A DNA stretch of 64,000 nucleotides from a bacterium (GTDB taxonomy: Bacteria > Sysuimicrobiota > Sysuimicrobiia > Sysuimicrobiales > Segetimicrobiaceae). The DNA lies in NCBI GenBank assembly GCA_035945995.1, contig DASYZR010000120.1, forward strand, positions 927 through 64,926, in the 5' to 3' direction. The notes below the pieces were generated by a model. That model made no database searches. It saw only the letters and a list, made by a program, of their open reading frames with translations, and had not been told where the DNA came from. The position numbers and the translations under genes are program-made. Shown here in pieces: positions 6,678 through 28,974 of the stretch. Within the stretch, counting starts at the first letter, position 1, and every line of letters begins with the position of its first letter.

Positions 6678-6686
6678 GAAAAGGGA

Positions 6687-7421: not shown

Positions 7422-7451
7422 CCTCTGCGCCTCCCTGGTGTCTCGGACCGA

Positions 7452-8798
7452 CTACAGAACTGCGAACGACAACAGAGACGGGGCCCGTGGCACTACGGGC
7501 TCGTCGCCGCACGGCAGTATTACGTCAATGCGTGTTCCCGCTCCTGGAAGGGTGGACGCGCTCACCTGCCCGCCGATGGCGGCGGCTCGCTCCCGCATGG
7601 CGAACACCCCGATGGCCCGCCCCTCGCCGCCGTGCGGGCTCATCGCGGGTTCGAACCTTGCGCCGTTGTCGGTGACCATGGCGCGCACGGTCAAACCGGC
7701 GCGCGCGATGGTCACCCCGACCCGGGTGGCGCCGGCATGTTTGGCGATGTCCGTGAGGGACTCCTGGAGGATGCGAAAGAGCACCACTTCCACCTTCGGC
7801 GGCAGGCGCGTCGCGAGGCCGTCGGTTTCAATGTCGACCGATATCCCGGCCGGTCTCAGTACCCGGTGCGCGTGAGCGGAAATGGCGGCCAGGAGCCCGA
7901 GCTCGTCGAGAAGCGTGGGCCGCAGGTCGCTGACGATCGCACGGATCTGGTCCAAGGTCTTCTCAGCCACGCTCCGTATGTACGCGATCTGCCGGGTCGT
8001 CTCCGCGGGCGCCTCGGCGAGGAACGGTTCGGTGCCATCCAGCGACATGATGAAGGCGGACAGCATCTGTCCGATCTCCTCGTGGAGCGCCCGGCAGATC
8101 CACCGGCGTTCGTCCTCCTGCGTGGTGAACACCCGCGCCAGCAGCGTCCCGCGCACGGTGTTGAGCAACGTCAGTTCGCGAACCCGTTGATTGGCGCGCA
8201 ACACGATCCCGGTCCCAAAGAGCAGCGTGAACACGCCCGACGCCAGCGCTCCCGGCAGCGGGGCCACCGGCCGCAAGAGCGGGTAATCCAACGCATGCAG
8301 ACCGGTGAAGACGAGCCCCCAGAAGAGAAGGACCGTTCCCCACTGCCGCACGCCGCGCTCGGCCTGCCGGAGGAAGTACGCCGAGGCGAGGAACGCGGCC
8401 GCCGCGAAGACCGACGGGGGCCACACCGTGATCCACCAGGTCCCGGCACCCGCGCCGAGTGCCGACGCCGCAAGCACGAACACGGCGGCTCCGCCCGCAC
8501 CGGCCAGCAGTTGGCGCCGTGTCAGCCCCCGCCACGCCGCGGCCACGCTCGAGAGCATCACCAGCGAGGCCGCGACGAATGCCGTGTTCCGGGCGAAGAA
8601 GAGCCAGGGCTGCGCCGTGCGCATCGCCGCCGCTTCGGCCACGACGTGCAGCGTGAACAGGACATAGGCGCCCGTCCACCACAGCACAATCCGCTCGCGG
8701 CTCTCGAGGTAACGCAGGAACAACAACAGCGTCACCGCGGCGTGGGCGCCGATCCCCAGGGCCAGCCAGTCGAGCGTCTCGATCGATACCGTCGGCAT
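7452..8798 (-). CDS. sensor histidine kinase, polytopic membrane N-terminus plus HisKA_3 plus HATPase_c
   Basis: H-box QEDERRWICRALHEEIGQMLSAF. ATPase boxes ILQESLTDIAKHA, DNGARFEP, GVFAMRERAAAIGG. About 6 N-terminal TM helices. Confidence 0.9.
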   Translation of the reverse strand: MPTVSIETLDWLALGIGAHAAVTLLLFLRYLESRERIVLWWTGAYVLFTLHVVAEAAAMRTAQPWLFFARNTAFVAASLVMLSSVAAAWRGLTRRQLLAGAGGAAVFVLAASALGAGAGTWWITVWPPSVFAAAAFLASAYFLRQAERGVRQWGTVLLFWGLVFTGLHALDYPLLRPVAPLPGALASGVFTLLFGTGIVLRANQRVRELTLLNTVRGTLLARVFTTQEDERRWICRALHEEIGQMLSAFIMSLDGTEPFLAEAPAETTRQIAYIRSVAEKTLDQIRAIVSDLRPTLLDELGLLAAISAHAHRVLRPAGISVDIETDGLATRLPPKVEVVLFRILQESLTDIAKHAGATRVGVTIARAGLTVRAMVTDNGARFEPAMSPHGGEGRAIGVFAMRERAAAIGGQVSASTLPGAGTRIDVILPCGDEPVVPRAPSLLSFAVL

Positions 8799-16971: not shown

Positions 16972-18711
16972 GTGGCGGCGGCCACCGCCATCATTCTCAC
17001 CGTGTTTGCCTTTATCGCGTTCCGGGCCGTTCAAGAGAGCACGTCGACCGTGCTGCAGCAGCGGCTGCAGGTCGGGACCGCGCTTGCCGACCGGATTGCC
17101 GCCACCCTTACGGGTTACCGAAACGAGCTGGAAGATCTCGGGTGGGAACTATCTCAGGAAAGTGCGCCCGAACGTCGCGCCGCGGTCCTCGAAGACTCCG
17201 AGTGGGCCCGCAGGTTTTCCGCGCTCGCGATCATTGGCCCGGACGGCCGCGTGATCTGGTCCCAGCCGGCATCGTGGTTTGCCTCGATGCGGCGAGGTCT
17301 CCCCCTGGCGGTTTTGACGGCAGCGTCCGGTGGCGCGGCCGTGCTTCCTCCCCTCGCCATAGCGCCGAACGTGCATCTGACGGCCCTCGCCGTCCCTCTC
17401 GCCGATCGCGGCGTTCTTCTGGGCGCCGTGGACCTCGAACGCCTTGCCCTCAGGGGCATCTTCGACGGCCCAGTGGGGGCATCGTTCGACTTCGAAATCA
17501 TGGACGCGCAGGGCATCGTCCGCGCGTCGGCCGTCCTCGCCGAGGTCGGGCGGCCGAGCGAGCATCTCCCCATCCTCGCCCCGGTGGTTCGGCCGGGAAG
17601 GCAGGCCATTGTGTACCACAACGTTCCACGGCGCCCGCACTACGTCGTGTACACACCGCTCGCCGAGTACCCGGGGTGGTCGGTCAACTTCGAGGAGCCC
17701 AGCGACGTTGTGCTCTCGCTGCCGCATGCGCTTCGCAACGGCCTGCTCGCGCTCGGAGCCGTTATCATGGTAGGGATGTCCACTCTGGCCTTTTTCGACA
17801 CAAAGGGCATGCTGCGGCCGCTCGCCCGGCTGCGGAAGGCGGCGGAGCATATCGCCGGCGGCAATCTGGACGACACCGTGGACGTCGAACGCCGCGACGA
17901 GGTCGGCGCGCTCGCGCAGGCTTTCGAGGCGATGCGGGTGAAGCTGCGCGCCTCGCGTGACGAGATCGCCGCCTGGAACCGCGAACTCGAGGACCGGGTC
18001 GCCAGCCGCACGCGGGAGCTCAGCGCGGCCCATGCCCTGCGCCGCCAGCTCCTCGAACGGATCGTGCTCGCCCACGAGGAAGAGCGCCGCCGAATTGCCC
18101 GAGAGCTGCACGACGAGATCGGCCAGGGCTTGACCGCCCTCGTGATGCAGCTCGGAACGGCGGAGGGCGCCCTGGAGCCCGACGCGGATGGGATCCGGCC
18201 GCAGCTCCAGGCCGTCCGCGAACAGACCTCCGAGATGATCGAGAACGTCCGGCGGCTCATGCTGGACCTGCGCCCGGCGGTCCTGGACGATCTCGGGCTC
18301 GTCCCGGCCATTCGCTGGTACGCCGAATCCCATCTGCCTGCGGCCGGCATCGACGCCCAAGTGTCGATCTCGGGCCTCGACGAGCACGAGCGGCTCCCGC
18401 GGCGCCTCGAACTGGTGGCGTTCCGTCTCGCGCAGGAGGCTGTCACGAACGTGATCCGCCACGCGCAGGCCAGGCGCGCCGTCATTTCCTTGGCGCGCGT
18501 GGCGGGCGGGCTCGAGATCTCGGTCGAGGACGACGGCCGCGGCTTCGACCCGGAGGCGGCGCCCCCCACCGGACGCCGCGGGTGGGGCCTCGCCGGGATG
18601 CGGGAGCGGGTCGCCCTGCTCGGCGGCACGCTGTCCGTCACGTCCCACCCGGGGTGCGGCACGCGCGTCGCGGCCAGGATCCCCGTCGAGGAGACGCCGG
18701 ATGCCGATTAG
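16972..18711 (+). CDS. sensor histidine kinase (periplasmic domain, HAMP, HisKA_3, HATPase_c); N-terminus uncertain
   Basis: HAMP LRKAAEHIAGGNLDDTVDVERRDEVGALAQAFEAM. H-box EEERRRIARELHDEIGQGLTAL. EAVTNVIRHA, DDGRGFD, GWGLAGMRERV. The upstream in-frame sequence RSLGLQARITLS looks like genuine N-terminus but has no canonical start codon. Confidence 0.9.
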   Translation: MAAATAIILTVFAFIAFRAVQESTSTVLQQRLQVGTALADRIAATLTGYRNELEDLGWELSQESAPERRAAVLEDSEWARRFSALAIIGPDGRVIWSQPASWFASMRRGLPLAVLTAASGGAAVLPPLAIAPNVHLTALAVPLADRGVLLGAVDLERLALRGIFDGPVGASFDFEIMDAQGIVRASAVLAEVGRPSEHLPILAPVVRPGRQAIVYHNVPRRPHYVVYTPLAEYPGWSVNFEEPSDVVLSLPHALRNGLLALGAVIMVGMSTLAFFDTKGMLRPLARLRKAAEHIAGGNLDDTVDVERRDEVGALAQAFEAMRVKLRASRDEIAAWNRELEDRVASRTRELSAAHALRRQLLERIVLAHEEERRRIARELHDEIGQGLTALVMQLGTAEGALEPDADGIRPQLQAVREQTSEMIENVRRLMLDLRPAVLDDLGLVPAIRWYAESHLPAAGIDAQVSISGLDEHERLPRRLELVAFRLAQEAVTNVIRHAQARRAVISLARVAGGLEISVEDDGRGFDPEAAPPTGRRGWGLAGMRERVALLGGTLSVTSHPGCGTRVAARIPVEETPDAD

Positions 18712-19363
18712 GGTGCTGGTCGCCGACGACCATCGGATCGTCCGCGCGGGAATCCGGTCGTTTCTGGAGGGCCAGCGGGACATCGCCGTCGTGGGGGAAG
18801 CCGGCACGGGCGAAGAGGCGTTGGCGATGGCCCAAACGCTGCGGCCGGACGTGACGGTCATGGATCTCAATATGCCGGGAATGGGCGGGCTCGAGGCCAT
18901 TCGCCGTATCAAAGGCGAAATCGCGGAGGTCCACGTCGTCGCGCTGACCATGCACGCGGACCAGCGGTTCTTTCTCGAGGCCCTCGCCGCCGGCGCCGAA
19001 GGCTACGTGCTCAAAGGCGCCGACCCGGCGCAGTTGCTGGCCGCGGTGCGCGCGGCGGCGGCGGGCACCGCGTATCTGACGCCGGAACAGGCAAAGCGCA
19101 TGCTCACCGAATACCGCCGCGCCGGCGAACGCCAGGCCGAGGGAGCCGGCGCCGGGCTCACCGCGCGCGAGCGCGAAGTGCTCACGCTCATCGCCGAGGG
19201 GCTGACCGGCAAGGCGATCGCCGAGCAGCTCTGCCTGAGCCCCAACACGGTCGAGCGCCACCGCACCAACATCATGAACAAGCTCGGCCTGCACAACCGC
19301 GCGGAGCTTGTGCGGTTCGCCATCCGCGAGCGGTTGATCGACGACGAGCCGCCGTCCCCGTAA
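18701..19363 (+). CDS. NarL/FixJ-family response regulator
   Basis: MPIRVLVADDHRIVRAG...VTVMDLNMPGMGG...LTMH...GYVLK. HTH LTAREREVLTLIAEGLTGKAIAEQLCLSPNTVERHRTNIMNKL. Confidence 0.95.
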   Translation: MPIRVLVADDHRIVRAGIRSFLEGQRDIAVVGEAGTGEEALAMAQTLRPDVTVMDLNMPGMGGLEAIRRIKGEIAEVHVVALTMHADQRFFLEALAAGAEGYVLKGADPAQLLAAVRAAAAGTAYLTPEQAKRMLTEYRRAGERQAEGAGAGLTAREREVLTLIAEGLTGKAIAEQLCLSPNTVERHRTNIMNKLGLHNRAELVRFAIRERLIDDEPPSP

Positions 19364-19384: not shown

Positions 19385-20422
19385 TCAACCCTGCGGCGGA
19401 GCGGGGTCACGGCGCAGGGCCAGCACCAGCCCGCACGCCAGCGCAAGCGCAAGCCCGGCGGCCACAATTCCGGGCAGGCGGTCGACAACCACCGGCAGTC
19501 CGTCGACGCGCACCGACACCGCGCCTCCGGCAGACACGGGGCCGCCGGACCACCGCCCGTAGTGGCGCCCGCGTTCCGCAACGATACCGCCGGCACGCAG
19601 TGCCGTACCGGACACCCGGATGTTCGGGTCCGCCAGGAGCTCCAGGTCGGTCGCGCCGTAGGGGAACTCCCACCCCAGCGTCGCCGACCGGGAGCGCGGC
19701 TCAACCCCGAACGCGTACGCGACCTGTGTGGCGCCGGGCATCACGGGGATCGCATCCGTAATCGTGCGGTCTCGAATGTGCGGATTGCGCCATCCGTCGA
19801 CGAACTCGACCGGCTCGGCCGCCCGCGGCGCCGGGGACACCAGCGGCAACGGGAACACGAGGGGATCCCGGTCCGTCACCGCCACGACTCGATCGGTCGC
19901 GTTGTGGAGCTGCTGGATCACGCTCACGCGAAGTGCGTCGTGCACGAGCTCGAGGACGACGAATACCACCGTCCCGTGCACGGCGGCCCGGTCGGGCGTA
20001 GCGGCGAATACGGACAGCGGCACGTTGCGCACGGGGGCGGCGGCGGTCAGGACGATCCGGGCGGTATACGGAACTCCGCCGTATTCCACGTGCACCACGA
20101 ACACCCGAGGTCCGCCGCCGACCGGTAGGCCGGGGAACGCGAAGCGGCCCTGAGCGTCAGTCGTCGTGACCCGCGTCGAGCTGAAGGCGGGCTCGACGAT
20201 CTCGAGACGCACCGCCCGCCCCGCCACCGGGTGCGCCGGAGCTGTTTGATCTGCCACGCTGCCCCGGATCTCGCCGACCATACCCGCGGCGTACGCGGTG
20301 GTGCCGGTGCCGAGCGCGGCACAGACGATGAACGCGGCCCAGGAGCGCGCGGCCCGGCTAGAACGCCCACCAGGTGAACAAGAGAAGGTTGTTGTTGTCG
20401 TTCGCGTTGCGTCCGAACCCAT
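19385..20422 (-). CDS. CarboxypepD_reg-like domain protein with signal peptide and C-terminal TM anchor
   Basis: RSWAAFIVCAALGTGTTAYA signal. GEIRGSVADQ...GRAVRLEIV...TTTDAQGRFAFPGLPVGG...VVHVEYGGVPY matches the carboxypeptidase-regulatory fold pattern. C-terminal GIVAAGLALALACGLVLAL. The only canonical start (ATG 20422) overlaps the upstream gene by 65 nt. Confidence 0.7.
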   Translation of the reverse strand: MGSDATRTTTTTFSCSPGGRSSRAARSWAAFIVCAALGTGTTAYAAGMVGEIRGSVADQTAPAHPVAGRAVRLEIVEPAFSSTRVTTTDAQGRFAFPGLPVGGGPRVFVVHVEYGGVPYTARIVLTAAAPVRNVPLSVFAATPDRAAVHGTVVFVVLELVHDALRVSVIQQLHNATDRVVAVTDRDPLVFPLPLVSPAPRAAEPVEFVDGWRNPHIRDRTITDAIPVMPGATQVAYAFGVEPRSRSATLGWEFPYGATDLELLADPNIRVSGTALRAGGIVAERGRHYGRWSGGPVSAGGAVSVRVDGLPVVVDRLPGIVAAGLALALACGLVLALRRDPAPPQG

Positions 20423-21818
20423 CGTAATTGGTCGTCCCGCCGTTGAACTTCAGATAATAAGTATACTGCAGTGCGATCCGCACATTGAGCCATGGGTAGC
20501 CCGCGTGGGTGGTGTCGTTGCCAAAGGGCGTCCAATCGATTTGCGCAACGATCGCCTGCGAATTCGGGTATCCGTTTGCGCTCCCGGTCAGCGACGCGGG
20601 CGCGTACAGCGTCGGGTCCGCACTTCCAAAGGTGCTGGCATAGGCCAGCGTGACTCCATAGGTGTTGCGCCAGTAATAGGCCGCGGCGATGCGGAACTGC
20701 GTCAGATCGTTGGAAAGATTGCTGGACAGGCCCGCCGCGTTGGACGCCGTCAGTGTTTGCGTCTCAAACAGGATATTGCTGGTAATCGCGAGGGTGTCCG
20801 GCCCGAAGGTATGCTGGTACGTGGCGTCGAGACCCCAATCGATGTACCGATTTTGGTCCGACGGGGTTACGGCGCCCGGGACTTGCTGGAGCGGGATGTC
20901 CATGTACACCCCGCCGACTTCGAGGAAGTTGCTGCCCCACGAGTGCTGGTAGGCGAGCCGGAAATACGGGGCGGTGCCGGAAATGACTCCCAGGCTCGAC
21001 GGACTGATGTTCATGGTGCTGAGCGTACTCGCGCTCCATGATTGGTAGAGCCCGCCTTCGATATAGAGCTTGTTGTCGTACAAGGCCGACAGACTCAGGC
21101 CATATACCGTCGTACCGAGGGCACTGATCGCCGGGCTCGCGCTCGGCGCAGGCCCGATGAACGGCGTCAAATACGGGAACTGAAAGCCATTGTACAGCGA
21201 GTTGTAGGGATCGCTCCCCGACGGCGTATTCGTGAGATCGAACCCCAGCAAGAGCGAGTGATTCCCGATCGTCAACGGTTTCGTGAGCCGAAGATCCGAC
21301 GTGGCTTCTACCGCGGTGACCGATCCCCCGGGGACGCCGCTGAACCCAATTTGTTCAAATCCGCCGATGCCAAACTTGCCGTTGAACGAATACCCGCCCG
21401 TGATAAAGATGCCGCTGCCGCTCCCCAGGAGATTGAAAAAGTTATTCGTGCCGTACCCTGCGGGCGCCGCCGGCAGGGCCTTCGCGTCGATTTGGAGGCT
21501 CGGTGTAACGAGGATGTTGATCGGAATATTCGCCCAGGGGCCGGTGCCGCCACGCCAGGTATATCCGTTCGCTCTGAAAGCGATACCGAACGGCGTCAGT
21601 TGCGGCCCGAACCCGCCGATGTGGCAGGCGCTGCACGGTGCCCCTGTTTGTCCGGCGAAACTCGGCAGGGCATCGGCGCGCGGAGTCCACCAGAACGCGA
21701 TGGCGAGCGCCAGGATACCGAAGACCGCGGCGCGCAGGCCGCCAACCACACGCACCACGTCGATGGAAAGCGCGCCCCGCGTCCTCAGGCACAAGCCACG
21801 TCCCGACCTGCTCGCCAC
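20358..21818 (-). CDS. fused monoheme cytochrome c / outer-membrane beta-barrel porin, Cyc2-like
   Basis: Signal peptide GLRAAVFGILALAIAFWWTPRADA, then LPSFAGQTGAPCSACH (single CxxCH), then FGPQLTPFGIAFRANGY. About 430 aa rich in G/Y/T/S/N with alternating hydrophobicity. C-terminal LLLFTWWAF (terminal Phe OMP signature). Start options: GTG 21818 (GAGGGGGGA RBS), ATG 21887, GTG 21758. Confidence 0.75.
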   Translation of the reverse strand: MASRSGRGLCLRTRGALSIDVVRVVGGLRAAVFGILALAIAFWWTPRADALPSFAGQTGAPCSACHIGGFGPQLTPFGIAFRANGYTWRGGTGPWANIPINILVTPSLQIDAKALPAAPAGYGTNNFFNLLGSGSGIFITGGYSFNGKFGIGGFEQIGFSGVPGGSVTAVEATSDLRLTKPLTIGNHSLLLGFDLTNTPSGSDPYNSLYNGFQFPYLTPFIGPAPSASPAISALGTTVYGLSLSALYDNKLYIEGGLYQSWSASTLSTMNISPSSLGVISGTAPYFRLAYQHSWGSNFLEVGGVYMDIPLQQVPGAVTPSDQNRYIDWGLDATYQHTFGPDTLAITSNILFETQTLTASNAAGLSSNLSNDLTQFRIAAAYYWRNTYGVTLAYASTFGSADPTLYAPASLTGSANGYPNSQAIVAQIDWTPFGNDTTHAGYPWLNVRIALQYTYYLKFNGGTTNYDGFGRNANDNNNLLLFTWWAF

Positions 21819-21962
21819 CCCTGTTCCCCCCTCTTCTCGTCGTGCTCTCACGACCGCGCGCTCTTTTCTCGCCCCGGTCCGCGGCACGCCGAGCCCCGTT
21901 CTGAATTTCCGATTTTCGTCCCTGGACTCCTCCGGCCGGCGGGACCCGTCCGGTCTCGGCCG

Positions 21963-22421
21963 CTAGGGAGGCGTCACGATTAATCGTCCGAACATCGTCG
22001 CGTGCCGCACCCCGCAGTAGGTCGTGCACATGTACAGGTATGTGCCGGGTTTGGGAGCGGTCACCGTCAGCTCGATCGATTTCCCCGGAATCAGTTCGGT
22101 GACTTGCGCGTCCAGACCCAGGATTTTGAACCCATGCACGACGTCCTCCGACTCGAGCCGGATCCGGAGCGGCACCCCCGCGGTCGCGTGCAGAACGTTC
22201 GGCGCGTACTGCCACTGGGTCGCGTGGACCACGACCACGTGACGATCCATCCACCGGCCGTACGCGAACACCGTGGCCGGCCCCACCACGAGCACCGCCG
22301 CGGCGACGCCGAGCGCGGCCAGTTCACCCGCTCCGACCGCGCGGACGCGCGCCGCCGCCGCCCGCACCGCGGCCAGCGTGCGTCGTCCCCGTGTCGATAG
22401 GGCGTTCACGTGGGTTCGCAT
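21963..22421 (-). CDS. membrane-anchored CuA-type cupredoxin (cytochrome oxidase subunit II-like domain, no partner subunit I)
   Basis: N-terminal TM LAALGVAAAVLVVGPATVFA. DVVHGF ... CTTYCGVRHATM fits H...C-x3-C-G-x2-H-x2-M, the binuclear CuA ligand pattern. AGGAGG RBS. Confidence 0.8.
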   Translation of the reverse strand: MRTHVNALSTRGRRTLAAVRAAAARVRAVGAGELAALGVAAAVLVVGPATVFAYGRWMDRHVVVVHATQWQYAPNVLHATAGVPLRIRLESEDVVHGFKILGLDAQVTELIPGKSIELTVTAPKPGTYLYMCTTYCGVRHATMFGRLIVTPP

Positions 22422-22431
22422 CTTGGGCCTC

Positions 22432-23910
22432 CTATCCCACGAACAGCCAGAGGAATGCCGCCGTAATCCCGCCGAGCAGCACGATCTGCGGCATCACCGC
22501 GCGGGCCGCCGCGGCCGGCGCGGGAAACGTCTGCCGGGCGATCTTCCAGGCCACGTCGAGCGAATACACGAACCCGAAGAGGAGGGCCGCGGCCTGCAGC
22601 GCCGGCAGCCAGCTCGTGAGGATCGGCGTCCAGGCGAAATGCGCGGTCCCGAAGAGATTCCAGCCCCAGCCGAAGGGGTCGGAGATGATCCGCAGCACGT
22701 ACGACCCGTTCGGCAGCAGGATCGCGAAGCTGAACCCGATCCACGCCAGCAGCCCGATCGGCACCAGGTGATAGGCGAAGTTCGTGAACACGCGGCGAAA
22801 CGGCACGGTGCGCCCCGCAAGCCGCCAGGACAACCAGGCGGAGGCGCCGTGCAGCGCCGGCAGCACGCCGGCCAGGACCGTGACGAGCCCCGCGGCAAAC
22901 AACGCCCACCCGCCGAGCGACCGGAGGTTCGCCCAGTCCTTGAGCGTGCCCCACGGCCCCATCATCGTCGCCGAGTAGACGGCCGCCGCGCCGAGCATGA
23001 TGAACGCCTTCCACGACTCGTCGAGACCGCGGTGCGACTCCACCAGGAGATCCGTCCCGAACGGGCGGACGTACAGACCCATGTTGTCATGCGAGCAGCA
23101 GCGGAAACATTCGAGGCAGAGCCCGCAGTAGGTGTTGCGTTTCAGGCTGGTCGGCTGCTCGAGCCACGGGCAGCCGTGGCCCGCGGCGCTGCCGAGGATG
23201 CACTCCTTGGACTTGTGGCCGACGCAGACCGGCGTGCTCTTCGGCCGGATCTCCAGCGCCGCGAAATTAGCGTACAGGCCGAGGAAGCCCCCGACCGGAC
23301 AGAGGTAGCGGCAGAACGTCCGCCGCTCGTAGACGAGGAAAAGGCCCGTGCCCAGGACCATGATCGAGCCCAGGAGCGCCACGGTCGCCCACGGCCGCGT
23401 CGTGATGATCCCGCTGAACGCCGCGACGCCCAGAAACACGCCGTTCACGAGCCACATGCTGCGCAGCTTCTTGGGCCATTTCAGCGACAGGCCGAGCGGC
23501 CGGCGCCAGCTGCGCCGGACGAGGGAGAGGCGCTGCAGCCACTCGCCCAGCACGGGCAGGGGGCACATCCCGCACCAGAGGCGGGACGCGAACGGGACGA
23601 GCACCAGCATCAGCGCCGACCACCACAGGATCCAAATGAACACGATCGCGATGTTCGCGTTGCCCACAGGCGTGCCGACGATGCCGGCGGCGAGGATGAC
23701 CAGGAACAGGAAGAGGTTCAGCGCGGTCGGCAGGAAGGTCGTCCAGCGGCTTCGCAGCAGGCGGCGCAGCCACGGCGCCTTCGTCAGCTCGAGACGCGCG
23801 TCCACGGGCACGAGGCCGAGGAAGACGTCGCGCGGTCGGGCGTTGCCGGCCGCGGTTCCGCCGGCCACGGCCGTCGCGGTGTCCGCCGCCACCCGATCCA
23901 CCGCACTCAT
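22432..23910 (-). CDS. polytopic 4Fe-4S (NapH/MauN/CcoG-like polyferredoxin) membrane protein with an extra C-terminal 5-TM domain
   Basis: WCGMCP and FCRYLCPVGG membrane Cys motifs. Soluble Cys-rich loop CVGHKSKEC...GHGCPW...YCGLCLECFRCC. About 10 TM helices. ATG 23910 overlaps the upstream stop (ATGA). The track ORF N-terminal 53 aa are rejected. Confidence 0.8.
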   Translation of the reverse strand: MSAVDRVAADTATAVAGGTAAGNARPRDVFLGLVPVDARLELTKAPWLRRLLRSRWTTFLPTALNLFLFLVILAAGIVGTPVGNANIAIVFIWILWWSALMLVLVPFASRLWCGMCPLPVLGEWLQRLSLVRRSWRRPLGLSLKWPKKLRSMWLVNGVFLGVAAFSGIITTRPWATVALLGSIMVLGTGLFLVYERRTFCRYLCPVGGFLGLYANFAALEIRPKSTPVCVGHKSKECILGSAAGHGCPWLEQPTSLKRNTYCGLCLECFRCCSHDNMGLYVRPFGTDLLVESHRGLDESWKAFIMLGAAAVYSATMMGPWGTLKDWANLRSLGGWALFAAGLVTVLAGVLPALHGASAWLSWRLAGRTVPFRRVFTNFAYHLVPIGLLAWIGFSFAILLPNGSYVLRIISDPFGWGWNLFGTAHFAWTPILTSWLPALQAAALLFGFVYSLDVAWKIARQTFPAPAAAARAVMPQIVLLGGITAAFLWLFVG

Positions 23911-24368
23911 GGCTTCCGTCCCTCCTCCCACGCGGCGTAGAGCACCGTGGCGCCGATCGTGCCGAGCGCCAGCAGACCCAGCCGCAGCGTGACATTGGGC
24001 TGAACGCGCAGCCAGCCGATCATGTACGGATGGAACGGTCCGCACGTGACCGCGCACCGGAACATCCATCGTCCGCTCCGCGTCGCCACGAACCGCGCGG
24101 TGACCGTTTGGCCGGGCACCACGGTTTCGGTGACGTTGTAGCCGTCGAGGTAGAATCCATGGGTCACGTCGTCGGCCTTGATGATCAGGGTGACCGGGTC
24201 ACCCTCGTTCACGGTCACGATGCCCGGCGTATACCGCCACTGCGACGCGGTGAGCGTAATCGTCCGCGGGTGCGGTAGCGGCGACGCGCCCAGGCGCACC
24301 ACGAAGACGCCGGCCGCGAGGAGCACCGCGCCCGCCACCACGACCAGATATCGTCGGCCTCTTATCAT
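23907..24368 (-). CDS. CuA-type cupredoxin with N- and C-terminal TM helices
   Basis: ATG 24368 follows GGGAGG. YLVVVAGAVLLAAGVFVV. DVTHGF ... CAVTCGPFHPYM (C-x3-C-G-x2-H-x2-M). C-terminal LRLGLLALGTIGATVLYAAW. Confidence 0.8.
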   Translation of the reverse strand: MIRGRRYLVVVAGAVLLAAGVFVVRLGASPLPHPRTITLTASQWRYTPGIVTVNEGDPVTLIIKADDVTHGFYLDGYNVTETVVPGQTVTARFVATRSGRWMFRCAVTCGPFHPYMIGWLRVQPNVTLRLGLLALGTIGATVLYAAWEEGRKP

Positions 24369-24441: not shown

Positions 24442-24978
24442 TTAGTTCGCACCCGCGACGAGCGACGCGGCGCCCGCCGGAGCGACACTCGGTGCCTGGG
24501 CCGTGGGGGAGACGACCAGTTTGTCCCACATCCCGGCGACTGCGTGTCCCGAGACGCCGCAGATCAACTCGTACGTCCCGGCCTTGCTCGCCTCGAAGGT
24601 GAATGTCTCCTTGGCGCCCTTGGGGAGTCCCGTTGCGGGATCTTTGGTCGTCGCACCCGAGAATACCGGGGCGGCCGACGGCGCCGGCTGCTGGTTCGCG
24701 CCGGAGGGCAACACCGCCAGGCTGTGGGGGAGGTCGTTGGCGTTCACAAAGTGCACGACGACCCGCCAGCCGAGGGGCACGGTAATCGTCATCCCGCCGC
24801 GCTGGTACCCGTTGAAATCGAAGCCCCCGCCGGCCGCGTTCTTACCCGCCACGATCGACAGTTCAACCGTGTGCGCCGCCGCGGCCGAGCCCGCCGTCCC
24901 CGGCACCATTGCCGCGAGGCCCCCGAGGATCCCGACCGCGAGCGCCCGCCACGCCGCTCTTGTCAGGTTGGATGTCAT
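24442..24978 (-). CDS. sulfocyanin-like type-1 blue copper protein
   Basis: ATG 24978 follows GGAGGTGGGAG. Signal/anchor AWRALAVGILGGLAAMV. Ligands LPHSL ... ELICGVSGHAVAGMW, close to the sulfocyanin C-G-x-P-G-H-x3-G-M-W pattern as I recall it. Confidence 0.75.
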   Translation of the reverse strand: MTSNLTRAAWRALAVGILGGLAAMVPGTAGSAAAAHTVELSIVAGKNAAGGGFDFNGYQRGGMTITVPLGWRVVVHFVNANDLPHSLAVLPSGANQQPAPSAAPVFSGATTKDPATGLPKGAKETFTFEASKAGTYELICGVSGHAVAGMWDKLVVSPTAQAPSVAPAGAASLVAGAN

Positions 24979-26106: not shown

Positions 26107-26505
26107 GTGCTCCGGCGCGCGCGCGTCGCGCGGCTGGCGACGGCCGACCGGCAGGGCCGGCCGAGCGTAGTACCGATCTGTTTCGCGGTTCGCGGCCGCC
26201 GGCTCTATTCGGCGATCGACGAGAAACCGAAGCGCGCGGCGCCCCGGCGCCTCAAACGGGTCCGCAATATCGCGGCGAATCCGCACGTCGCCCTCGTGGT
26301 GGACGCGTACCGGGAAGACTGGCGCCGCCTTTGGTACGTCCTCGTCATCGGCACGGCCGAGGTGATTCAGCCTGGCGCGGCCGAGCATGCCGCGGCGCTT
26401 AGAGCCCTCCGCCGGAAGTACCGTCAGTACAGAACGATGCGGCTTGAAGAGCGCCCCGTGCTCGGCATCACGCCGGGCCGCATTGTCATGTGGACGGCGA
26501 CCTGA
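26107..26505 (+). CDS. PPOX-class (pyridoxamine 5'-phosphate oxidase fold) probable F420-dependent enzyme
   Basis: GTG 26107. RRARVARLATADRQGRPSVVPICFAV...LYSAIDEKPK...NPHVALVVD...WRRLWYVLVIGTAEV. Confidence 0.75.
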   Translation: MLRRARVARLATADRQGRPSVVPICFAVRGRRLYSAIDEKPKRAAPRRLKRVRNIAANPHVALVVDAYREDWRRLWYVLVIGTAEVIQPGAAEHAAALRALRRKYRQYRTMRLEERPVLGITPGRIVMWTAT

Positions 26506-27097
26506 CGACGCGGAAGCGGAGATTCGTCAGCTGCCCTGACCGGGTTATGCTCGCCGTTTCCAAGTCGATCGGCAGGGTCCAAGGTCCGCCGTACAGCCGG
26601 ACGCCCTCGCCGAGTAAGACCGGCGCCAGACGAACGAGGATCTCGTCGACAAGGCGTGCGTGGATGCACTGCTGCGCGACGTTGGCGCCGATCACAACCA
26701 CATTTTTGCCCTTGGCGGCGCGAAGGGCCGTGGTGACGGCGCGATGGATATCCCCTGAGAGGAATGTGATCGTCGGATCTTCGGGAACGTCCGGGGCGCG
26801 GTGGGTGAGTACGAATTGCGGTCCGGTCCAGGCTCCGCCGTAGACTGTGCTGAATTCGGCGCGCTGCCCGTTTCTTCTCCCGGTGTCGTAGCTGCGCCGC
26901 CCCACCAGCACCGCACCGGTTGTGCTGACGACCTCGTCGGTGATCGCCCTCATGGCGGACGCCTCGTGCGGTCCCGAATATCGCAAGATCCGGTCCATAA
27001 CGTCGCCCGGGCCGGCGATGAAGCCGTCTAAGGACATCGTCACATGCCAAAGGACTTTGCCCGCCGTGCTTCCATTGCGTCTCAACGTACGTCCCAT
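26486..27097 (-). CDS. dihydrofolate reductase-family protein (RibD C-terminal domain)
   Basis: ATG 27097. GKVLWHVTMSLDGFIAGP...VLVGRRSY...VVIGANVAQQCIHARLVDEILVRLAPVLLGEGVRL. Confidence 0.85.
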   Translation of the reverse strand: MGRTLRRNGSTAGKVLWHVTMSLDGFIAGPGDVMDRILRYSGPHEASAMRAITDEVVSTTGAVLVGRRSYDTGRRNGQRAEFSTVYGGAWTGPQFVLTHRAPDVPEDPTITFLSGDIHRAVTTALRAAKGKNVVVIGANVAQQCIHARLVDEILVRLAPVLLGEGVRLYGGPWTLPIDLETASITRSGQLTNLRFRVVRSPST

Positions 27098-27388
27098 GAG
27101 AACCTCTTCTCTCCCCGCCCGGACCGGGGACGGTCCTTCTCTCACACTAGATAGTCGGACGGACGGCTTCGAAATCGACACGACCGGCGTCTCTCATGAA
27201 CGTACGATGCCCTTGTGGGCACGCCGTGGAGGCGCAGTGGCGAGGTTGTGGAGGTTTCCGTTCTCGGCGGCTGAGCGGCTCGCTCTGGTGGTACGGACGG
27301 AGACGTTCGCGTAAAGCGTACGTCCGCTCGCCGTCAGGCGCGCTCCATCGGAGACCTCGCAGCGCTCTTTCACCCGGATTGTCCCTGT

Positions 27389-27988
27389 CTACTTCTTCTT
27401 CCTCATGACGTCGCAGAGCATGTCCGAGTGGATGTTCAGACCGATATTTGTCATGTTGTAAATGTGCTCGCTGGCGACAAGCCACACGATCTCGCAGATT
27501 TGGCGGTCGGAATAATAGGCGGACATGCGGGCAAAAGTGTTCGGGTTCACCTTTTTGTCCCTTGTCAACTCCGTCACATAGTTCAGAGCGGCACGTTCTG
27601 CATCGGTAAAGAGTGAGCTGGTCTGATAGTGCTCCAGGGCATCGAATTTGGCTTCATTCATCGCCGCTTTGATCACGGCCGCGCGGGCAGCATCGATGCA
27701 GAAAAGGCAGACGTTGATACGCGCCACCTGTACACGGATGAGCACCGCCGTTTCCGGCGGCAGCGACAGCTTCTTATCCAGCGCGCTGACCTTACCGTAG
27801 AACACGCCGAATGCAAGCGGCAATCGGGCGGAATACACCGTCAGCGGTGTAAGCACTTTGCCAAACTGCCGGCGTGTAAAGTAGAACACCAGCTTCATCA
27901 TCACCCCCTTGGGGTTTTCGATGGGAGGAAGAAATGTGCCCTGGGCGTCGGGAACTGCTGGCACTGGGTTTTTCACACTTGCTTGCAT
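27389..27988 (-). CDS. carboxymuconolactone decarboxylase (AhpD-like) family protein, compositionally atypical
   Basis: ATG 27988 follows GGAAGGAG. ...RVQVARINVCLFCIDAARAA...ALNYVTELT.... Three 60-nt lines counted by hand gave 47, 55 and 52% G+C, against about 72% next door. Confidence 0.8.
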   Translation of the reverse strand: MQASVKNPVPAVPDAQGTFLPPIENPKGVMMKLVFYFTRRQFGKVLTPLTVYSARLPLAFGVFYGKVSALDKKLSLPPETAVLIRVQVARINVCLFCIDAARAAVIKAAMNEAKFDALEHYQTSSLFTDAERAALNYVTELTRDKKVNPNTFARMSAYYSDRQICEIVWLVASEHIYNMTNIGLNIHSDMLCDVMRKKK

Positions 27989-28033
27989 GGCTGTCTCCTT
28001 CCACAATGCGTTCATATCCGCTCGACTTCCCAT

Positions 28034-28060
28034 TGTCACATCGATTGGGCTTCATCCGTC
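28034..28060 (+). promoter_or_regulatory. ECF41-type promoter motif TGTCACA-N16-CGTC upstream of the sigma factor gene
   Basis: TGTCACA at 28034..28040, 16-nt spacer, CGTC at 28057..28060. It lies 30 nt before GTG 28090. A 9-bp inverted repeat ATCCGTCAT/ATGACGGAT (28054..28075) overlaps the -10 element. Confidence 0.55.
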
Positions 28061-28089
28061 ATAGTGATGACGGATCGCAAGGAGGAAAC

Positions 28090-28974
28090 GTGACCGTGGG
28101 CGGGAGCGACTGGCTGGCGGGACGGTTCGAGGCCCACCGGACCCACCTAAGAGCGGTGGCCTACCGAATGCTGGGCTCGCTGAGCGAGGCGGACGACGCC
28201 GTCCAGGACGCCTGGCTGCGGCTCAGCCGCTCCGGCGCGAGCGGCGTCGAGAACCTCGGGGGATGGCTGACGACGGTGGTCGCGCGGGTGTGCCTCGACA
28301 TGCTGCGCGCGCGCAAGTCGCGGCGGGAGGAGTCCCTGGGCGTGCACGTGCCCGACCCGATCGTGGGCCGCGAGGATCGGTTCGACCCCGAGCACGAAGC
28401 GCTCCTGGCCGACTCGGTCGGTCTCGCGCTGCTCGTGGTGCTCGAAACGCTCGCTCCCGCCGAACGGCTCGCGTTCGTGCTGCACGACATGTTCGACGTC
28501 CCCTTCGATGAGATCGCGTCCATCGTCGGGCGCTCCCCGGTTGCGGCACGGCAACTCGCGAGCCGCGCACGCCGCCGGGTGCGGGGCGCGGCGACCGTTC
28601 CCGACGTCGATCTCACCCGCCAGCGGTCAGTCGTCGACGCCTTTCTCGCGGCCTCGCGCGGCGGTGACTTCGATGCGCTGCTCACGGTGCTCGACCCAGA
28701 CGTCGTGCTCCGAGCCGACCGCGGCTCCGCGGCTCCGGGAGCATCGCGGCTGGTCCGCGGTGCGCGGGCCGTGGCCGAGCAGGCGCTCACTTTCTCGCGG
28801 CTTGTCGCGTTCGTACGACCGGTACTCGTGAATGGAGCCGCGGGAATCGCGTCCTGGCTTCCGGATGGACGGCTGCTTTCTGTCATGGGCTTCACGATCG
28901 CCCGCGGGAAGATCGTCGAAATTGACGTGCTCGCCGACCCCGAGCGCCTCCGCCGGCTCGACCTCGGCGGTTAA
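28090..28974 (+). CDS. ECF sigma factor, ECF41/SigJ-like, with fused SnoaL-like C-terminal domain
   Basis: GGAGGA RBS then GTG 28090. Region 2 DDAVQDAWLRL. Region 4 LAPAERLAFVLHDMFDVPFDEIASIVGRSPVAARQLASRARRRV. About 110-aa C-terminal extension VVDAFLAASRGGDFDALLTVLDPDVV.... No anti-sigma gene is adjacent. Confidence 0.9.
   Translation: MTVGGSDWLAGRFEAHRTHLRAVAYRMLGSLSEADDAVQDAWLRLSRSGASGVENLGGWLTTVVARVCLDMLRARKSRREESLGVHVPDPIVGREDRFDPEHEALLADSVGLALLVVLETLAPAERLAFVLHDMFDVPFDEIASIVGRSPVAARQLASRARRRVRGAATVPDVDLTRQRSVVDAFLAASRGGDFDALLTVLDPDVVLRADRGSAAPGASRLVRGARAVAEQALTFSRLVAFVRPVLVNGAAGIASWLPDGRLLSVMGFTIARGKIVEIDVLADPERLRRLDLGG

Follow-up and report, generated by a model that had tools for sequence, protein, structure and literature searches.

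Does this locus encode an outer-membrane iron oxidase of the Cyc2 type, and what would such a protein serve? The question is raised by an open reading frame in a 64-kb stretch of bacterial DNA (64,000 nucleotides, hereafter the window), which a sequence-only reading had proposed to encode a Cyc2-like fused monohaem cytochrome-porin.

A precursor with a signal peptide, one haem site and a barrel

The reading frame at 20358..21887 on the minus strand is intact, both in the ORF list and on reading of the sequence. Its product runs from a signal peptide through a haem site with one CxxCH to a beta-barrel of ~390 aa that ends in ...FTWWAF. The gene and its parts lie at the following positions of the window.

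20358..21818, minus strand: cyc2-like gene, stop included, encoding a precursor of 486 aa; alternative starts GTG 21887 (longest ORF) and GTG 21758
21669..21818, minus strand: signal peptide (residues 1-50 of the 486-aa form)
21534..21668, minus strand: small N-terminal cytochrome c domain, LPSFAGQTGAPCSACHIGGFGPQLTPFGIAFRANGYT
20361..21527, minus strand: beta-barrel porin domain, ~390 aa, with the C-terminal beta-signal-like ...LLLFTWWAF

The start codon had been described as ambiguous among three. All three are candidates, but the codon at 21887, given as ATG, is in fact GTG, and the best start appears to be GTG 21818, which yields the 486-aa form. A Shine-Dalgarno-like run, GAGGGGGGA, stands ~7 nt ahead of this codon, and database gene calls begin at the same position in a 99% identical protein (P0001) and in many orthologues. 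The N-terminal extension 'ASRSGRG..W..GAL.I..LR' is kept in orthologue proteins, several of which have M at the GTG 21818 position. It is because of this ribosome-binding site and the conserved orthologue N-termini that we favour GTG 21818.

The signal peptide, as read from the sequence, has a long basic n-region, a hydrophobic core (AAVFGILALAIAFWW) and a cleavage site between ADA and LP. The protein reads ...WWTPRADA followed by LPSFAGQTGAPCSACHIGGFGPQLTPFGIAFRANGY and ends in LLLFTWWAF before the stop; the cleavage site, protein sequence and C-terminus reported earlier were exact on re-reading. The sole CxxCH of the protein is CSACH (nt 21621-21635, residues 62-66 of the 486-aa form), in the context ALPSFAGQTGAPCSACH...GPQL, and the terminal F is kept in at least 90% of the sequences in a 54-sequence alignment of homologues.

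Homology to characterized Cyc2

We compared the protein with Cyc2 of Acidithiobacillus ferrooxidans (AfCyc2, B7JAQ7; sequence from the supplement of bioRxiv 10.1101/2021.03.22.436458). An HMM built from the 54-sequence alignment (A1, down to 38% identity) matched AfCyc2 end to end, model positions 9-455 of 455 against residues 11-483 of 483, with 209 bits and E 3.9e-56 (Z = 5.8e9). Single-sequence comparisons also matched: phmmer gave 75 bits (E 5.6e-16 at Z = 1.8e9), and pairwise BLASTP gave 98.6 bits (30% over 334 aa of porin) plus 45 bits (47%, cytochrome domain), with a pairwise E of 2e-26 compared to a published pipeline cut-off of 1e-5. Global identity between the mature proteins was 28.8% of columns, or 33.7% of aligned pairs. 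AfCyc2 is 26.7-29.6% identical to members of its own cluster and 18-23% to other clusters (Fig. S7, PMC8406198); by this measure the identity of the present protein to AfCyc2 equals the within-cluster level and exceeds the between-cluster level.

Architecture and length are alike in the two proteins (precursors of 486 aa here and 485 aa in AfCyc2). The mature N-terminus LPSFA-QTG..C.ACH is common to both, AfCyc2 beginning LPSFARQTG, and in both the haem-binding His is mature residue 16; the blocks PQLTP.G, APY.RLAYQH.WG and KFNG and a C-terminal aromatic residue are likewise common. The Arg of PxFARQT is Gly here. A. ferrooxidans is an acidophilic proteobacterium, whereas the present host belongs to an uncultivated high-GC lineage of soils and peat.

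Homologues were numerous, with 544 found by a word-indexed search and 1,942 representative clusters by an exhaustive search. CxxCH and its surrounding motif were conserved in 119 of the 120 closest homologues, the exception (P0049) being a 387-aa fragment without the N-terminus. Residues C42, C45, H46, G48, G51, P52 and L54 were invariant in the 54-sequence alignment, and CxxCH with ~20 flanking residues was invariant or nearly so in homologues down to 38% identity. The published Cyc2 signature is AXPXFAR[Q/K][T/Y] plus PXL, around CXXCH (Keffer et al. 2021, PMC8406198), and the PxFAxQTGxxCxxCH-type signature that had been given for this protein is the same one. Here it reads ALPSFAGQT-GAP-CSACH-IGGFG-PQL, in which ALPSFAGQT agrees at 8 of 9 positions and the consensus Arg is replaced by Gly; a strict PXFAR filter, as in PMC8406198, would reject the protein. 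This Arg is kept in 4 of 118 among the 120 closest homologues versus 99 of 126 wider-family representatives.

The PQL is present 5 residues past the haem His, as compared to 3 in AfCyc2, making the spacer 2 residues longer; both CxxCH-to-PxL spacers are common in the family (51 representatives with 5 residues and 69 with 3). The clade containing the window protein nests within a separate branch that carries the 5-residue spacer. This clade is monophyletic and deeply separated, with at most 44% identity to anything outside. Its nearest named relatives are from Acidiphilium, Ralstonia, Caballeronia, Rhodanobacter and Acetobacteraceae.

Searches of Pfam, NCBIfam and PDB sequences returned no match for the protein, nor a matching Cyc2 model. 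We applied the family criteria of McAllister 2020, Keffer 2021 and FeGenie, and found a signal peptide, a single N-terminal CXXCH, a PXL, a chain of 365 aa or more that includes a barrel, and similarity to characterized Cyc2.

Predicted fold

AlphaFold2 modelled the protein as a barrel (pLDDT 85.7, pTM 0.83) with 16-18 long DSSP strands, mostly at pLDDT >90; the prediction for Cyc2 is 16 strands. Foldseek matched this model in the PDB to OmpU, Omp32, OmpF and AlgE, with E-values down to 5e-10, the best matches being 16-18-stranded porins, in agreement with the proposal that the C-terminal ~430 aa form a barrel. The pLDDT was low in the cytochrome domain because the model was built without haem, and since this domain is poorly modelled the placement of the haem as a 'plug' stays putative. 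The precursor is predicted to be a Sec signal peptide and a ~45-residue monohaem c-type domain fused to a 16-18-stranded outer-membrane beta-barrel. Taken together, the end-to-end AfCyc2 profile match, the barrel model and the conserved CxxCH bear out the description as a Cyc2-like fused monohaem cytochrome-porin, and as judged by homology we regard the protein as a genuine member of the Cyc2 family.

A copper-protein operon

The cyc2-like gene comes fifth in an operon whose genes lie on one strand and encode, in order, a sulfocyanin/rusticyanin-like blue copper protein, a CuA cupredoxin, a NapH-like polyferredoxin, a second CuA cupredoxin, Cyc2 and a CarboxypepD_reg protein. Adjacent genes overlap by 4 nt at the tightest junction and stand 144 nt apart at the widest, which lies ahead of cyc2.

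24442..24978, minus strand: secreted type-1 blue copper protein of the sulfocyanin/rusticyanin group, 178 aa (Pfam SoxE; ORF extends to 25059)
23907..24368, minus strand: CuA1, membrane-anchored CuA-type cupredoxin, 153 aa (Pfam Cupredoxin_1 and COX2)
22432..23910, minus strand: NapH/MauN-like membrane polyferredoxin, 492 aa (Pfam Fer4_5; weak NCBIfam napH_)
21963..22421, minus strand: CuA2, membrane-anchored CuA-type cupredoxin, 152 aa (Pfam Cupredoxin_1 and COX2)
19385..20422, minus strand: CarboxypepD_reg (transthyretin-like) protein, anchored to the membrane by its C-terminus and encoded directly after cyc2 (Pfam 29.1 bits, cut-off 32.3)
16972..19363, plus strand: convergent two-component system, HAMP/HisKA_3 histidine kinase 16972-18711 and NarL/GerE-type response regulator 18701-19363 (Pfam)

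The blue copper protein, encoded four genes upstream of cyc2, carries the ligands H ... C-x4-H-x4-M (ICGVSGHAVAGM), with the upstream His aligned. It scored 77.8 bits against Pfam SoxE (PF06525; cut-off 21), and its best solved structures were of A. ferrooxidans rusticyanin (E 2e-8, ligands aligned). In NCBIfam it reached 80.8 bits for sulfocyanin (TIGR03094) and 34 bits for rusticyanin, below the equivalog cut-offs of both; as the sulfocyanin cut-off is 168.4, the protein is not an equivalog of sulfocyanin. CuA1 shows the ligand pattern THGF ... CAVTCGPFHPYM and matched the CuA domains of NosZ, CoxB and SoxA in NCBIfam. CuA2 has the pattern H...C-x3-C-x3-H-x2-M (VHGF ... CTTYCGVRHATM), and its best PDB matches were to the CuA domain of Thermus ba3 oxidase subunit II (E 5e-17, ligands aligned).

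The polyferredoxin gene starts at an ATG that shares bases with the preceding stop codon (ATGA). CX3CP motifs (CGMCP, CRYLCP) and one CxxCxxCxxC cluster motif were read from its sequence, and it scored 31 bits against Pfam Fer4_5 (cut-off 22) and 22.9 bits against TIGR02163 (napH_; cut-off 213). The NapH/MauN family is characterized by 4 TM helices, two CX3CP motifs and two 4Fe-4S motifs. Many of its 2,249 homologues are fused to a COX2/cupredoxin domain, suggesting a functional tie between these two operon components. The longest ORF of the CarboxypepD_reg protein overlaps the end of cyc2, so its start probably lies downstream of 20422. Within the 64-kb window there is neither a haem-copper oxidase subunit I (COX1 homologue) nor a Cyc1-type cytochrome, and the only other CxxCH protein is a cytochrome b-c fusion at 54109-55902.

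Conservation of the locus in relatives

This copper-protein context is the new element here and is syntenic in related MAGs. The five-gene block recurs together with the kinase/regulator pair in loci L002, L084 and L085, where the pair adjoins the operon at 75-94% identity. A SoxE-Cyc2(-CarboxypepD_reg) arrangement is found in L001, L081-L083 and L088, with the CarboxypepD_reg orthologue next after cyc2 in L081-L083 and also in L087, while in L086, L087 and L089 Rieske/cytochrome b-c complexes and a monohaem cytochrome c adjoin cyc2. SoxE, CuA and polyferredoxin partners were found in 0 of 76 loci of more distant homologues (other phyla, mostly proteobacterial); outside the clade, a small monohaem cytochrome c is a recurrent cyc2 neighbour (16 of 70 loci).

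Neighbouring genes are closest to those of Limnocylindria and Symbiobacteriaceae, which suggests that the host is probably a Terrabacteria-type diderm. The earlier deduction of a diderm cell from the C-terminus is reasonable, with the cyc2-like protein and an SLH-domain neighbour in a relative as its sole basis.

Proposed role and direction of electron flow

We consider it fairly likely that this Cyc2-family protein, set in a copper-carrier operon, works in inward electron transfer from Fe(II). Dissolved Fe(II) would be oxidized at the haem in or on the Cyc2 barrel, and electrons would later pass to the membrane-anchored CuA proteins. These may feed a terminal oxidase encoded elsewhere (a downhill branch) or, alternatively, the polyferredoxin and the quinone pool (an uphill branch). 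Rusticyanin is the physiological acceptor of AfCyc2 (pathway in PMC10654088), and the operon parallels the way in which the rus operon combines Cyc2, rusticyanin and CoxB. Encoded among copper electron carriers, the present Cyc2-family protein is a credible candidate iron oxidase, though an unproven one.

Some observations count against an Fe(II)-oxidizing role: the Arg-to-Gly change in the signature, at a position that is rarely Arg in the close subfamily; the lack of an oxidase subunit I and Cyc1 in the window; and the nearest named relatives, which to our knowledge are mostly heterotrophs and not known as iron oxidizers.

Polyferredoxins of the NapH-like and CcoG-like kinds can act as quinol dehydrogenases or as cupric reductases, so the one in this operon may send electrons outward or have no role beyond maturation of the copper proteins. 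In an outward chain, electrons would pass from quinol through the polyferredoxin, the CuA proteins and the blue copper protein to Cyc2 and an extracellular acceptor (Fe(III) at low pH, or humic substances); or the system might serve only Fe(II) detoxification or sensing, without energy conservation. We think either of these possible but rather unlikely. NapH-family proteins, to which the polyferredoxin has its weak napH_ match, are quinol dehydrogenase modules feeding periplasmic redox partners, many close relatives (Acidiphilium, Acetobacteraceae, Rhodanobacter) are heterotrophs of acidic soil or peat, and neither the operon nor the window contains a terminal oxidase. The A. ferrooxidans chain is itself described as reversible, and many of the Cyc2 homologues that are distant from the three characterized proteins await verification and may serve other purposes (Keffer et al., PMC8406198). 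Nevertheless, all three characterized Cyc2-type proteins oxidize Fe(II) (Keffer et al., PMC8406198), and blue copper and CuA centres carry electrons at high potential, as is usual on the acceptor side of chains that oxidize Fe(II), such as that of the rus operon. The Rieske/cytochrome b-c complexes beside cyc2 in relatives also resemble the uphill/downhill branching of iron oxidizers, in keeping with the inward flow that we prefer.

Base composition and origin of the gene

The G+C content of the window is 69.3% and that of the cyc2 gene 60.9-61.3%, with 500-nt windows inside the gene at 59-62%. The local dip first noticed by hand count is therefore real (about 61% versus 69%), but its suggested reading as a sign of acquisition found no support. 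Amino-acid composition alone predicts 63.7% against the observed 60.9%, accounting for about two thirds of the dip, and a cyc2 dip of 1-10 points recurs in nearly all of 15 other genomes examined (15 loci), which leaves a recent transfer unsupported. We accordingly regard it as improbable that cyc2 was recently acquired, for instance from Proteobacteria, and is foreign to this genome, even though the gene lies 8 points under the window, transfer is known to have shaped the Cyc2 phylogeny (PMC12442345) and the nearest relatives outside the clade are proteobacterial. Its GC3 of 0.78 (0.86 expected) is the fourth lowest of 55 genes yet not outlying (z = -1.5), and neither is its codon-likelihood deviation (z = -1.0); the flanking operon genes show typical codon use. 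Moreover, the whole locus is syntenic in MAGs whose Cyc2 is ~74-76% identical (L084, L085), and the deep separation of the monophyletic clade (at most 44% identity to outsiders) argues in the same direction. An ancient inter-phylum transfer of cyc2 is possible.

Comparison with other systems

That the protein is an ordinary diffusion porin with a chance CxxCH, neither cytochrome nor redox protein, is a reading to which its general-porin structural matches and its blank Pfam, NCBIfam and PDB sequence searches might lend themselves, but it is effectively refuted by the near-invariance of CxxCH and its flanks down to 38% identity, full-length homology to a purified haem-containing iron oxidase (AfCyc2) and an operon composed of redox proteins.

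The rus operon (cyc2-cyc1-cup-coxBACD-rus) shares with the present one a rusticyanin-type blue copper protein and CoxB-like CuA proteins. Cyc1 (a dihaem c4) and CoxA/C/D are absent here from the 64-kb window, the NapH-like polyferredoxin and the second CuA protein are extra, and the blue copper protein is nearer to sulfocyanin than to rusticyanin. We suggest, tentatively and with more doubt than conviction, that a soil/peat high-GC lineage wires Cyc2 to the cytoplasmic membrane via a copper relay without a soluble c-type cytochrome, in which the sulfocyanin/rusticyanin-like protein would pass electrons to the two orphan CuA proteins and the NapH-like polyferredoxin would be the point of entry to the quinone pool. 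If true, Fe(II) oxidation or extracellular electron exchange would here have an architecture not described before, and acidic soils would harbour a new iron-cycling phylum.

Among neutrophilic Cyc2 proteins, biochemical validation exists only for Cyc2PV-1 of Mariprofundus ferrooxydans (Keffer et al. 2021, PMC8406198). By published description it and other 'Cluster 1' Cyc2, whose known hosts are Zetaproteobacteria, Gallionellaceae and Chlorobi, are likewise fused monohaem cytochrome-porins that carry a signal peptide and follow the same logic in their consensus motif; identities between Cyc2 clusters are 17-23% (PMC8406198). The Cyc2-like proteins of Acetobacteraceae, Acidiphilium, Rhodanobacteraceae, Ralstonia and Burkholderiales, linked to AfCyc2 in an SSN study (PMC10654088), are the nearest named relatives, with 28-44% full-length identity. 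The closest of them (Acetobacteraceae and similar, ~38-44%) share the HxGxFGPQL 5-residue spacer, but the typical neighbour in these loci is a small monohaem cytochrome c rather than copper proteins.

MtoAB, PioAB and MtrAB are likewise outer-membrane conduits between extracellular iron and the periplasm. They consist of two proteins, a 26-strand barrel sheathing a decahaem cytochrome, as opposed to one polypeptide with one haem and 16-18 strands here. The NapGH, NosGH and NosR modules, together with the CuA domain of NosZ and CoxB, likewise pair a membrane polyferredoxin (CX3CP and 4Fe-4S motifs) with periplasmic CuA centres. The match here is far under the family cut-offs (napH_ 22.9 versus 213), and the CuA proteins are orphan single-domain proteins, with neither a NosZ catalytic domain nor an oxidase subunit I. 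Polyferredoxin-cupredoxin fusions also occur in other lineages.

The cyc2 gene and its product

20358-21818 (-), cyc2, best-supported start GTG 21818; product of 486 aa (the window protein)

The longest cyc2 open reading frame ran on the minus strand from 21887 down to a TAG at 20358-20360 and contained three in-frame starts, every one GTG. The sequence-only reading had proposed an ATG at 21887, where the codon is in fact GTG; the residues that it read agreed exactly with the translation. GTG 21818 is positioned about 7 nt past GAGGGGGGA and yields 486 aa, the length called in databases for the 99%-identical protein P0001 and for many orthologues. The 20 additional residues (ASRSGRG...GAL.I..LR) were conserved at the protein level in orthologues, several of which have their initiating Met there. 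Because of this spacing, the length shared with P0001 and the orthologues, and the conserved N-terminal residues, GTG 21818 is the best-supported start. The signal peptide comprised 50 residues and ended in ADA, directly before LPSF. The mature window protein starts LPSFAGQTGAPCSACH and mature AfCyc2, the characterised iron oxidase of Acidithiobacillus ferrooxidans, starts LPSFARQTGWSCAACH; the two N-termini correspond exactly, and the haem-binding His is mature residue 16 in both. A promoter and terminator scan gave nothing beyond shuffled expectation, and exact look-up of the window protein sequence returned no identical database record.

Membership in the Cyc2 family

A word-indexed search retrieved 544 homologues of the window protein, and an exhaustive search of 1.84 billion cluster representatives retrieved 1,942 at E <= 1e-3, 743 at E <= 1e-10 and 206 at E <= 1e-30. 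Many more distant Cyc2-related sequences came from soil, peat and bog MAG collections. The CxxCH was present in 119 of the 120 best homologues, the lone exception being a 387-aa fragment. In an alignment of 54 family sequences reaching down to 38% identity, both Cys, the His, G48, G51, P52, L54, G58 and F61 were invariant, and at least 90% of the sequences kept the upstream-motif residues A, P, F, Q, T and G as well as the terminal Phe. Searches of Pfam, NCBIfam and PDB sequences with the window protein gave no match save a spurious one to CydS (E 0.16).

For direct comparison, the AfCyc2 sequence (ATCC 23270, B7JAQ7) was read from supplementary OCR text, covering 483 of 485 residues, of Jiang et al. 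(bioRxiv 10.1101/2021.03.22.436458). BLASTP aligned the barrel at 98.6 bits (30% over 334 residues) and the cytochrome domain at 45 bits (47%), and phmmer gave 75 bits (E 5.6e-16 in a search space of 1.8 billion). An HMM of the window protein's own family matched AfCyc2 from end to end (model 9-455 of 455, AfCyc2 residues 11-483 of 483) with 209 bits and E 3.9e-56 in a search space of 5.8 billion. Global identity between the mature proteins was 28.8% of columns, or 33.7% of aligned pairs. Since AfCyc2 shares 26.7-29.6% identity with members of its own cluster and 18-23% with other clusters (Keffer et al. Fig. S7, PMC8406198), the window protein is as near to AfCyc2 as accepted members of that cluster are. 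PMC8406198 assigns AfCyc2 to Cluster 2 in its main text, but in the machine-read Fig. S7 the group seems to carry the number 3.

AlphaFold2, run on the 54-sequence alignment, produced a model with mean pLDDT 85.7, pTM 0.83 and 274 residues at or above 90, in which DSSP assigned three short helices to the N-terminal 80 residues and 16-18 long antiparallel strands to the rest of the chain, from residue 80 onwards. The pLDDT of the cytochrome domain fell below 50 in places, as expected for a haem-less model. Foldseek returned 230 PDB matches at E <= 1e-3 (best E 5e-10), and the top matches were all 16-18-strand outer-membrane channels (OmpU, OmpT, Omp38, Omp32, OmpF/C, DcaP and AlgE). Published Cyc2 models have 16 strands (PMC8406198, among others) or about 17 (PMC10654088). 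The end-to-end HMM match, the barrel model with its porin matches and the conserved CxxCH together bear out the sequence-only call of a Cyc2-like fused cytochrome-porin. The window protein also indicates that its lineage probably builds a Bam-type outer-membrane barrel.

A divergent signature motif in a distinct clade

Cyc2 proteins have been defined by a signal peptide, a single CXXCH with AXPXFAR[Q/K][T/Y] upstream and PXL downstream, a length of at least 365 aa and a porin (Keffer et al., PMC8406198). The window protein carries ALPSFAGQT, which follows the consensus at all positions except for Arg to Gly, and its PQL lies 5 residues beyond the haem His, compared to 3 in AfCyc2. The N-terminal signature named in the sequence-only reading is the published motif, and the window protein carries this motif, with CxxCH and PxL in place, apart from that Arg. 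Among the 120 nearest homologues the Arg position was occupied by G, A or Q, with Arg kept in only 4/118; it was retained in 99/126 representatives of the wider family. Both spacers between CxxCH and PxL were common in the family (3 residues in 69 sequences, 5 residues in 51). In a neighbour-joining tree, a rough distance tree without support values, the window clade (16 tips) was monophyletic and nested in a 54-tip group with the five-residue spacer (52 tips; no PxL was found in the other 2), and AfCyc2 was placed in the three-residue-spacer part. These data support assignment of the window protein to the Cyc2 family as a member of a distinct clade.

A strict PXFAR screen was used for the published tree of 1,593 sequences (PMC8406198). 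Such a screen would drop the window clade (PxFA[G/A/Q]QT) and much of the five-residue-spacer subfamily. No genetic marker of microbial iron oxidation is in wider use than Cyc2 and, because screens that demand PXFAR filter out this clade, the iron-cycling potential of acidic soils and peat may be under-counted.

In the cytochrome domain (21534-21668) the 54-sequence alignment contained no conserved Met or His besides the His of CxxCH. AfCyc2 has a Met in TPMGRMF, whereas the window clade has TPFGIAF at that site. With no second conserved Met or His in the domain, the haem of this subfamily may be five-coordinate or ligated by the barrel.

Cyc2 is encoded with copper proteins and a polyferredoxin

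In order from upstream to downstream on the minus strand, cyc2 has the following neighbours, cyc2 itself lying between the last two.

24442-24978 (-), secreted blue copper protein with a SoxE domain (77.8 bits in Pfam)
23907-24368 (-), CuA1, membrane-anchored CuA cupredoxin, ligands H...C-x3-C-x3-H-x2-M
22432-23910 (-), NapH/MauN-like polyferredoxin, encoded between CuA1 and CuA2; its ATG overlaps the stop codon of the gene before it
21963-22421 (-), CuA2, membrane-anchored CuA cupredoxin, ligands H...C-x3-C-x3-H-x2-M
19385-20422 (-), CarboxypepD_reg-domain protein, downstream of cyc2

The best solved relatives of the SoxE-like protein were rusticyanin structures (E 2e-8), to which its ligands His, Cys, His and Met could be aligned; it scored 80.8 bits with the sulfocyanin model and 34 with the rusticyanin model, both under the equivalog cut-offs. 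The CuA cupredoxins best matched the CuA domain of subunit II of the Thermus ba3 oxidase (E 5e-17). A NarL-type two-component system is convergent with the operon. From the gene arrangement, cyc2 is predicted to be co-transcribed with the genes of a membrane polyferredoxin and of three copper proteins that face the periplasm. The sole other CxxCH protein in the window is a cytochrome b-monohaem cytochrome c fusion beside a Rieske protein at 54109-56048, and haem-copper oxidase subunit I is absent from the 64-kb window.

Several further genes of the window encode redox or copper-handling proteins.

54109-56048 (-), Rieske protein and cytochrome b with C-terminal monohaem cytochrome c, a bc-type complex 33 kb from cyc2
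32625-33434 (-), PpoB2-family (PF09948) membrane copper chaperone, 8 kb off the copper-protein operon
5176-7421 (-), second copper/cytochrome cluster, with a histidine kinase (7452-8798) on one side and a GerE regulator (4373-5005) on the other, comprising:
6687-7421 (-), two-domain plastocyanin/amicyanin-like cupredoxin, Cys ligand missing in the second domain
6207-6677 (-), small unknown protein
5176-6270 (-), cytochrome b

The PpoB2-family chaperone may play a part in loading the three cupredoxins with copper. For cytochrome b the next named relatives were from Ca. Limnocylindria (Chloroflexota; 55-57% identity), and for the polyferredoxin from Bacillota/Symbiobacteriaceae (56-62% identity).

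Conservation of the operon in other genomes

The SoxE-CuA-polyferredoxin-CuA-Cyc2 block, with kinase and regulator, was also found in the closest MAGs (loci L002, L084 and L085), where the partner proteins were 75-94% identical to those of the window and Cyc2 was 71-76% identical. An alternative arrangement, SoxE-Cyc2-CarboxypepD_reg, occurred at L001 and L081-83, and SoxE-Cyc2 also at L088. MAG SMAG_U8773, which contains L001 and L002, encodes two cyc2 paralogues, each about 70% identical to the window protein; one lies in a SoxE-Cyc2 operon, whereas the other lies in the full SoxE-CuA-polyferredoxin-CuA-Cyc2 operon with kinase and regulator. In divergent clade members (L086, L087 and L089) the genes adjoining cyc2 encode a Rieske/cytochrome b-c complex together with either a monohaem cytochrome c or a cupredoxin. 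Among loci of Proteobacteria, Terriglobia and others, 76 were matched by Cyc2 alone, with no operon partners, and two more gave one weak additional match each (a response regulator at L016, CuA1 at L053). In 16/70 of those loci the gene after cyc2 encodes a small monohaem cytochrome c, for example in Polymorphobacter and on Acidiphilium plasmids.

Elsewhere, homologues of the polyferredoxin are often fused to a COX2/cupredoxin domain, a functional tie between the two components. Ten such database proteins (P0272, P0277, P0283, P0293, P0301, P0314, P0317, P0324, P0328 and P0340), of 611-658 aa with a Cupredoxin_1/COX2 domain, were ~48-52% identical to the window polyferredoxin, one example coming from an Anaerolineae MAG. 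As a Rosetta-stone link, these fusions suggest that the polyferredoxin and CuA cupredoxin may act as one unit, which seems to be undescribed.

No account of a Cyc2-sulfocyanin-CuA-polyferredoxin operon turned up in a text search limited to open papers; in the papers searched, sulfocyanin and Cyc2 were co-mentioned mainly in marker-gene lists or in different organisms. Cyc2 is a well-described and very widespread family, already reported in MAGs from candidate phyla, for example Eremiobacterota and Elusimicrobiota (PMC8357290), to which the window protein adds one member with one departure from the consensus motif. The set of co-encoded partners is also different, and the conserved copper-protein operon is a concrete, testable lead to the periplasmic partners of Cyc2 and to iron cycling missed by present motif filters.

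Other features of these loci were recorded. A conserved gene of 482-492 aa without a Pfam family follows cyc2 at L087 (1866-3314) and L088 (4023-5501); it has no counterpart in the window and was ruled out as a Cyc2 paralogue (BLASTP E 0.13). L087 also encodes, at 6616-8367, near cyc2 and the Rieske/cytochrome b-c genes, a protein of 583 aa whose only SLH domain is N-terminal, presumably similar in architecture to the OmpM-type outer-membrane tethers of diderm Terrabacteria. Plasmid CP084173.1, labelled Acidithiobacillus ferrooxidans, gave match statistics identical to those of Acidiphilium cryptum JF-5 pACRY03 (NC_009469.1), suggesting a shared or mislabelled plasmid. On pACRY03 (L091) the neighbours of the cyc2-like gene are a transposase and U32 peptidase/SCP2 genes with a ubiquinone-biosynthesis annotation, and a gene for a c-type cytochrome lies downstream.

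A putative electron-transfer route

In A. ferrooxidans, electrons pass from Cyc2 to rusticyanin and then to the oxidase CuA, or uphill via the bc1 complex (PMC10654088). By analogy, Fe(II) would most likely be oxidised at the Cyc2 haem of the window protein, the electron would pass to the rusticyanin/sulfocyanin-like protein and from this blue copper protein to the CuA proteins, and these would deliver it to an oxidase encoded elsewhere or, via the polyferredoxin, to the quinone pool. Such branching agrees with the bc complexes adjoining cyc2 in relatives. The main rival explanation keeps the parts unchanged but sends electrons the other way, out from quinol to an extracellular acceptor, or gives the system a role unrelated to energy conservation. 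This rival is favoured by the quinol dehydrogenase activity of NapH-type modules, by the reversibility of the A. ferrooxidans chain and by the many relatives that are heterotrophs; the bc complexes in relatives are accommodated by the branched oxidative route. The polyferredoxin may alternatively be a CcoG-like cupric reductase for copper-protein maturation.

The operon offers a concrete, testable proposal for the periplasmic electron acceptors of Cyc2, a step unsettled in most Cyc2 organisms, the candidates being the rusticyanin/sulfocyanin-type copper protein, the orphan CuA proteins and the polyferredoxin. If the protein is Cyc2-like without iron oxidation, it would be a reminder that Cyc2 matches beyond validated clades need biochemical checks; Keffer et al. 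urge caution here, asking for verification of homologues distant from the three characterised proteins (PMC8406198).

Origin of the low G+C content of cyc2

The sequence-only reading had noted lower local G+C at cyc2 and raised acquisition as its possible cause. The dip itself was confirmed (61% for the gene and 59-62% in 500-nt windows inside it, against 69.3% for the window), and the proposed cause was not. The window protein has many G, T, S, N, Y, F and I residues and few R and E, and its amino-acid sequence combined with the window's synonymous codon preferences predicted 63.7% G+C, compared to 60.9% observed and ~69% typically. The remainder was a shortfall in GC3, which was 0.78 where 0.86 was expected (z = -1.5, the 4th lowest value among 55 genes), with a codon-likelihood z of -1.0. 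Moreover, in nearly all of 15 further genomes, among them proteobacterial ones, cyc2 lay 1-10 points under its flanks, and the remaining operon genes had typical or above-average GC3. Composition, modest codon z-scores and a dip shared with other genomes therefore lend no support to recent horizontal transfer of cyc2, which was rejected as the cause of the dip; clear outliers were instead the genes at 26486-28039 (GC3 0.70-0.75). Ancient inter-phylum transfer of cyc2 is possible, and the Cyc2 phylogeny is transfer-rich (PMC12442345).

The region at 26486-28039 (-) forms a second, deeper trough (54-64% G+C), where codon use is less typical than anywhere else in the window.

26486-27181 (-), RibD_C-domain gene; GC3 0.75 against ~0.86 expected, codon log-likelihood deficit -0.26
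27389-28039 (-), carboxymuconolactone-decarboxylase-family gene; GC3 0.70 against ~0.86 expected, codon log-likelihood deficit -0.33
28081-28971 (+), ECF sigma factor with SnoaL domain, adjoining these two genes

Recent transfer is more likely for the genes at 26486-28039 than for cyc2.
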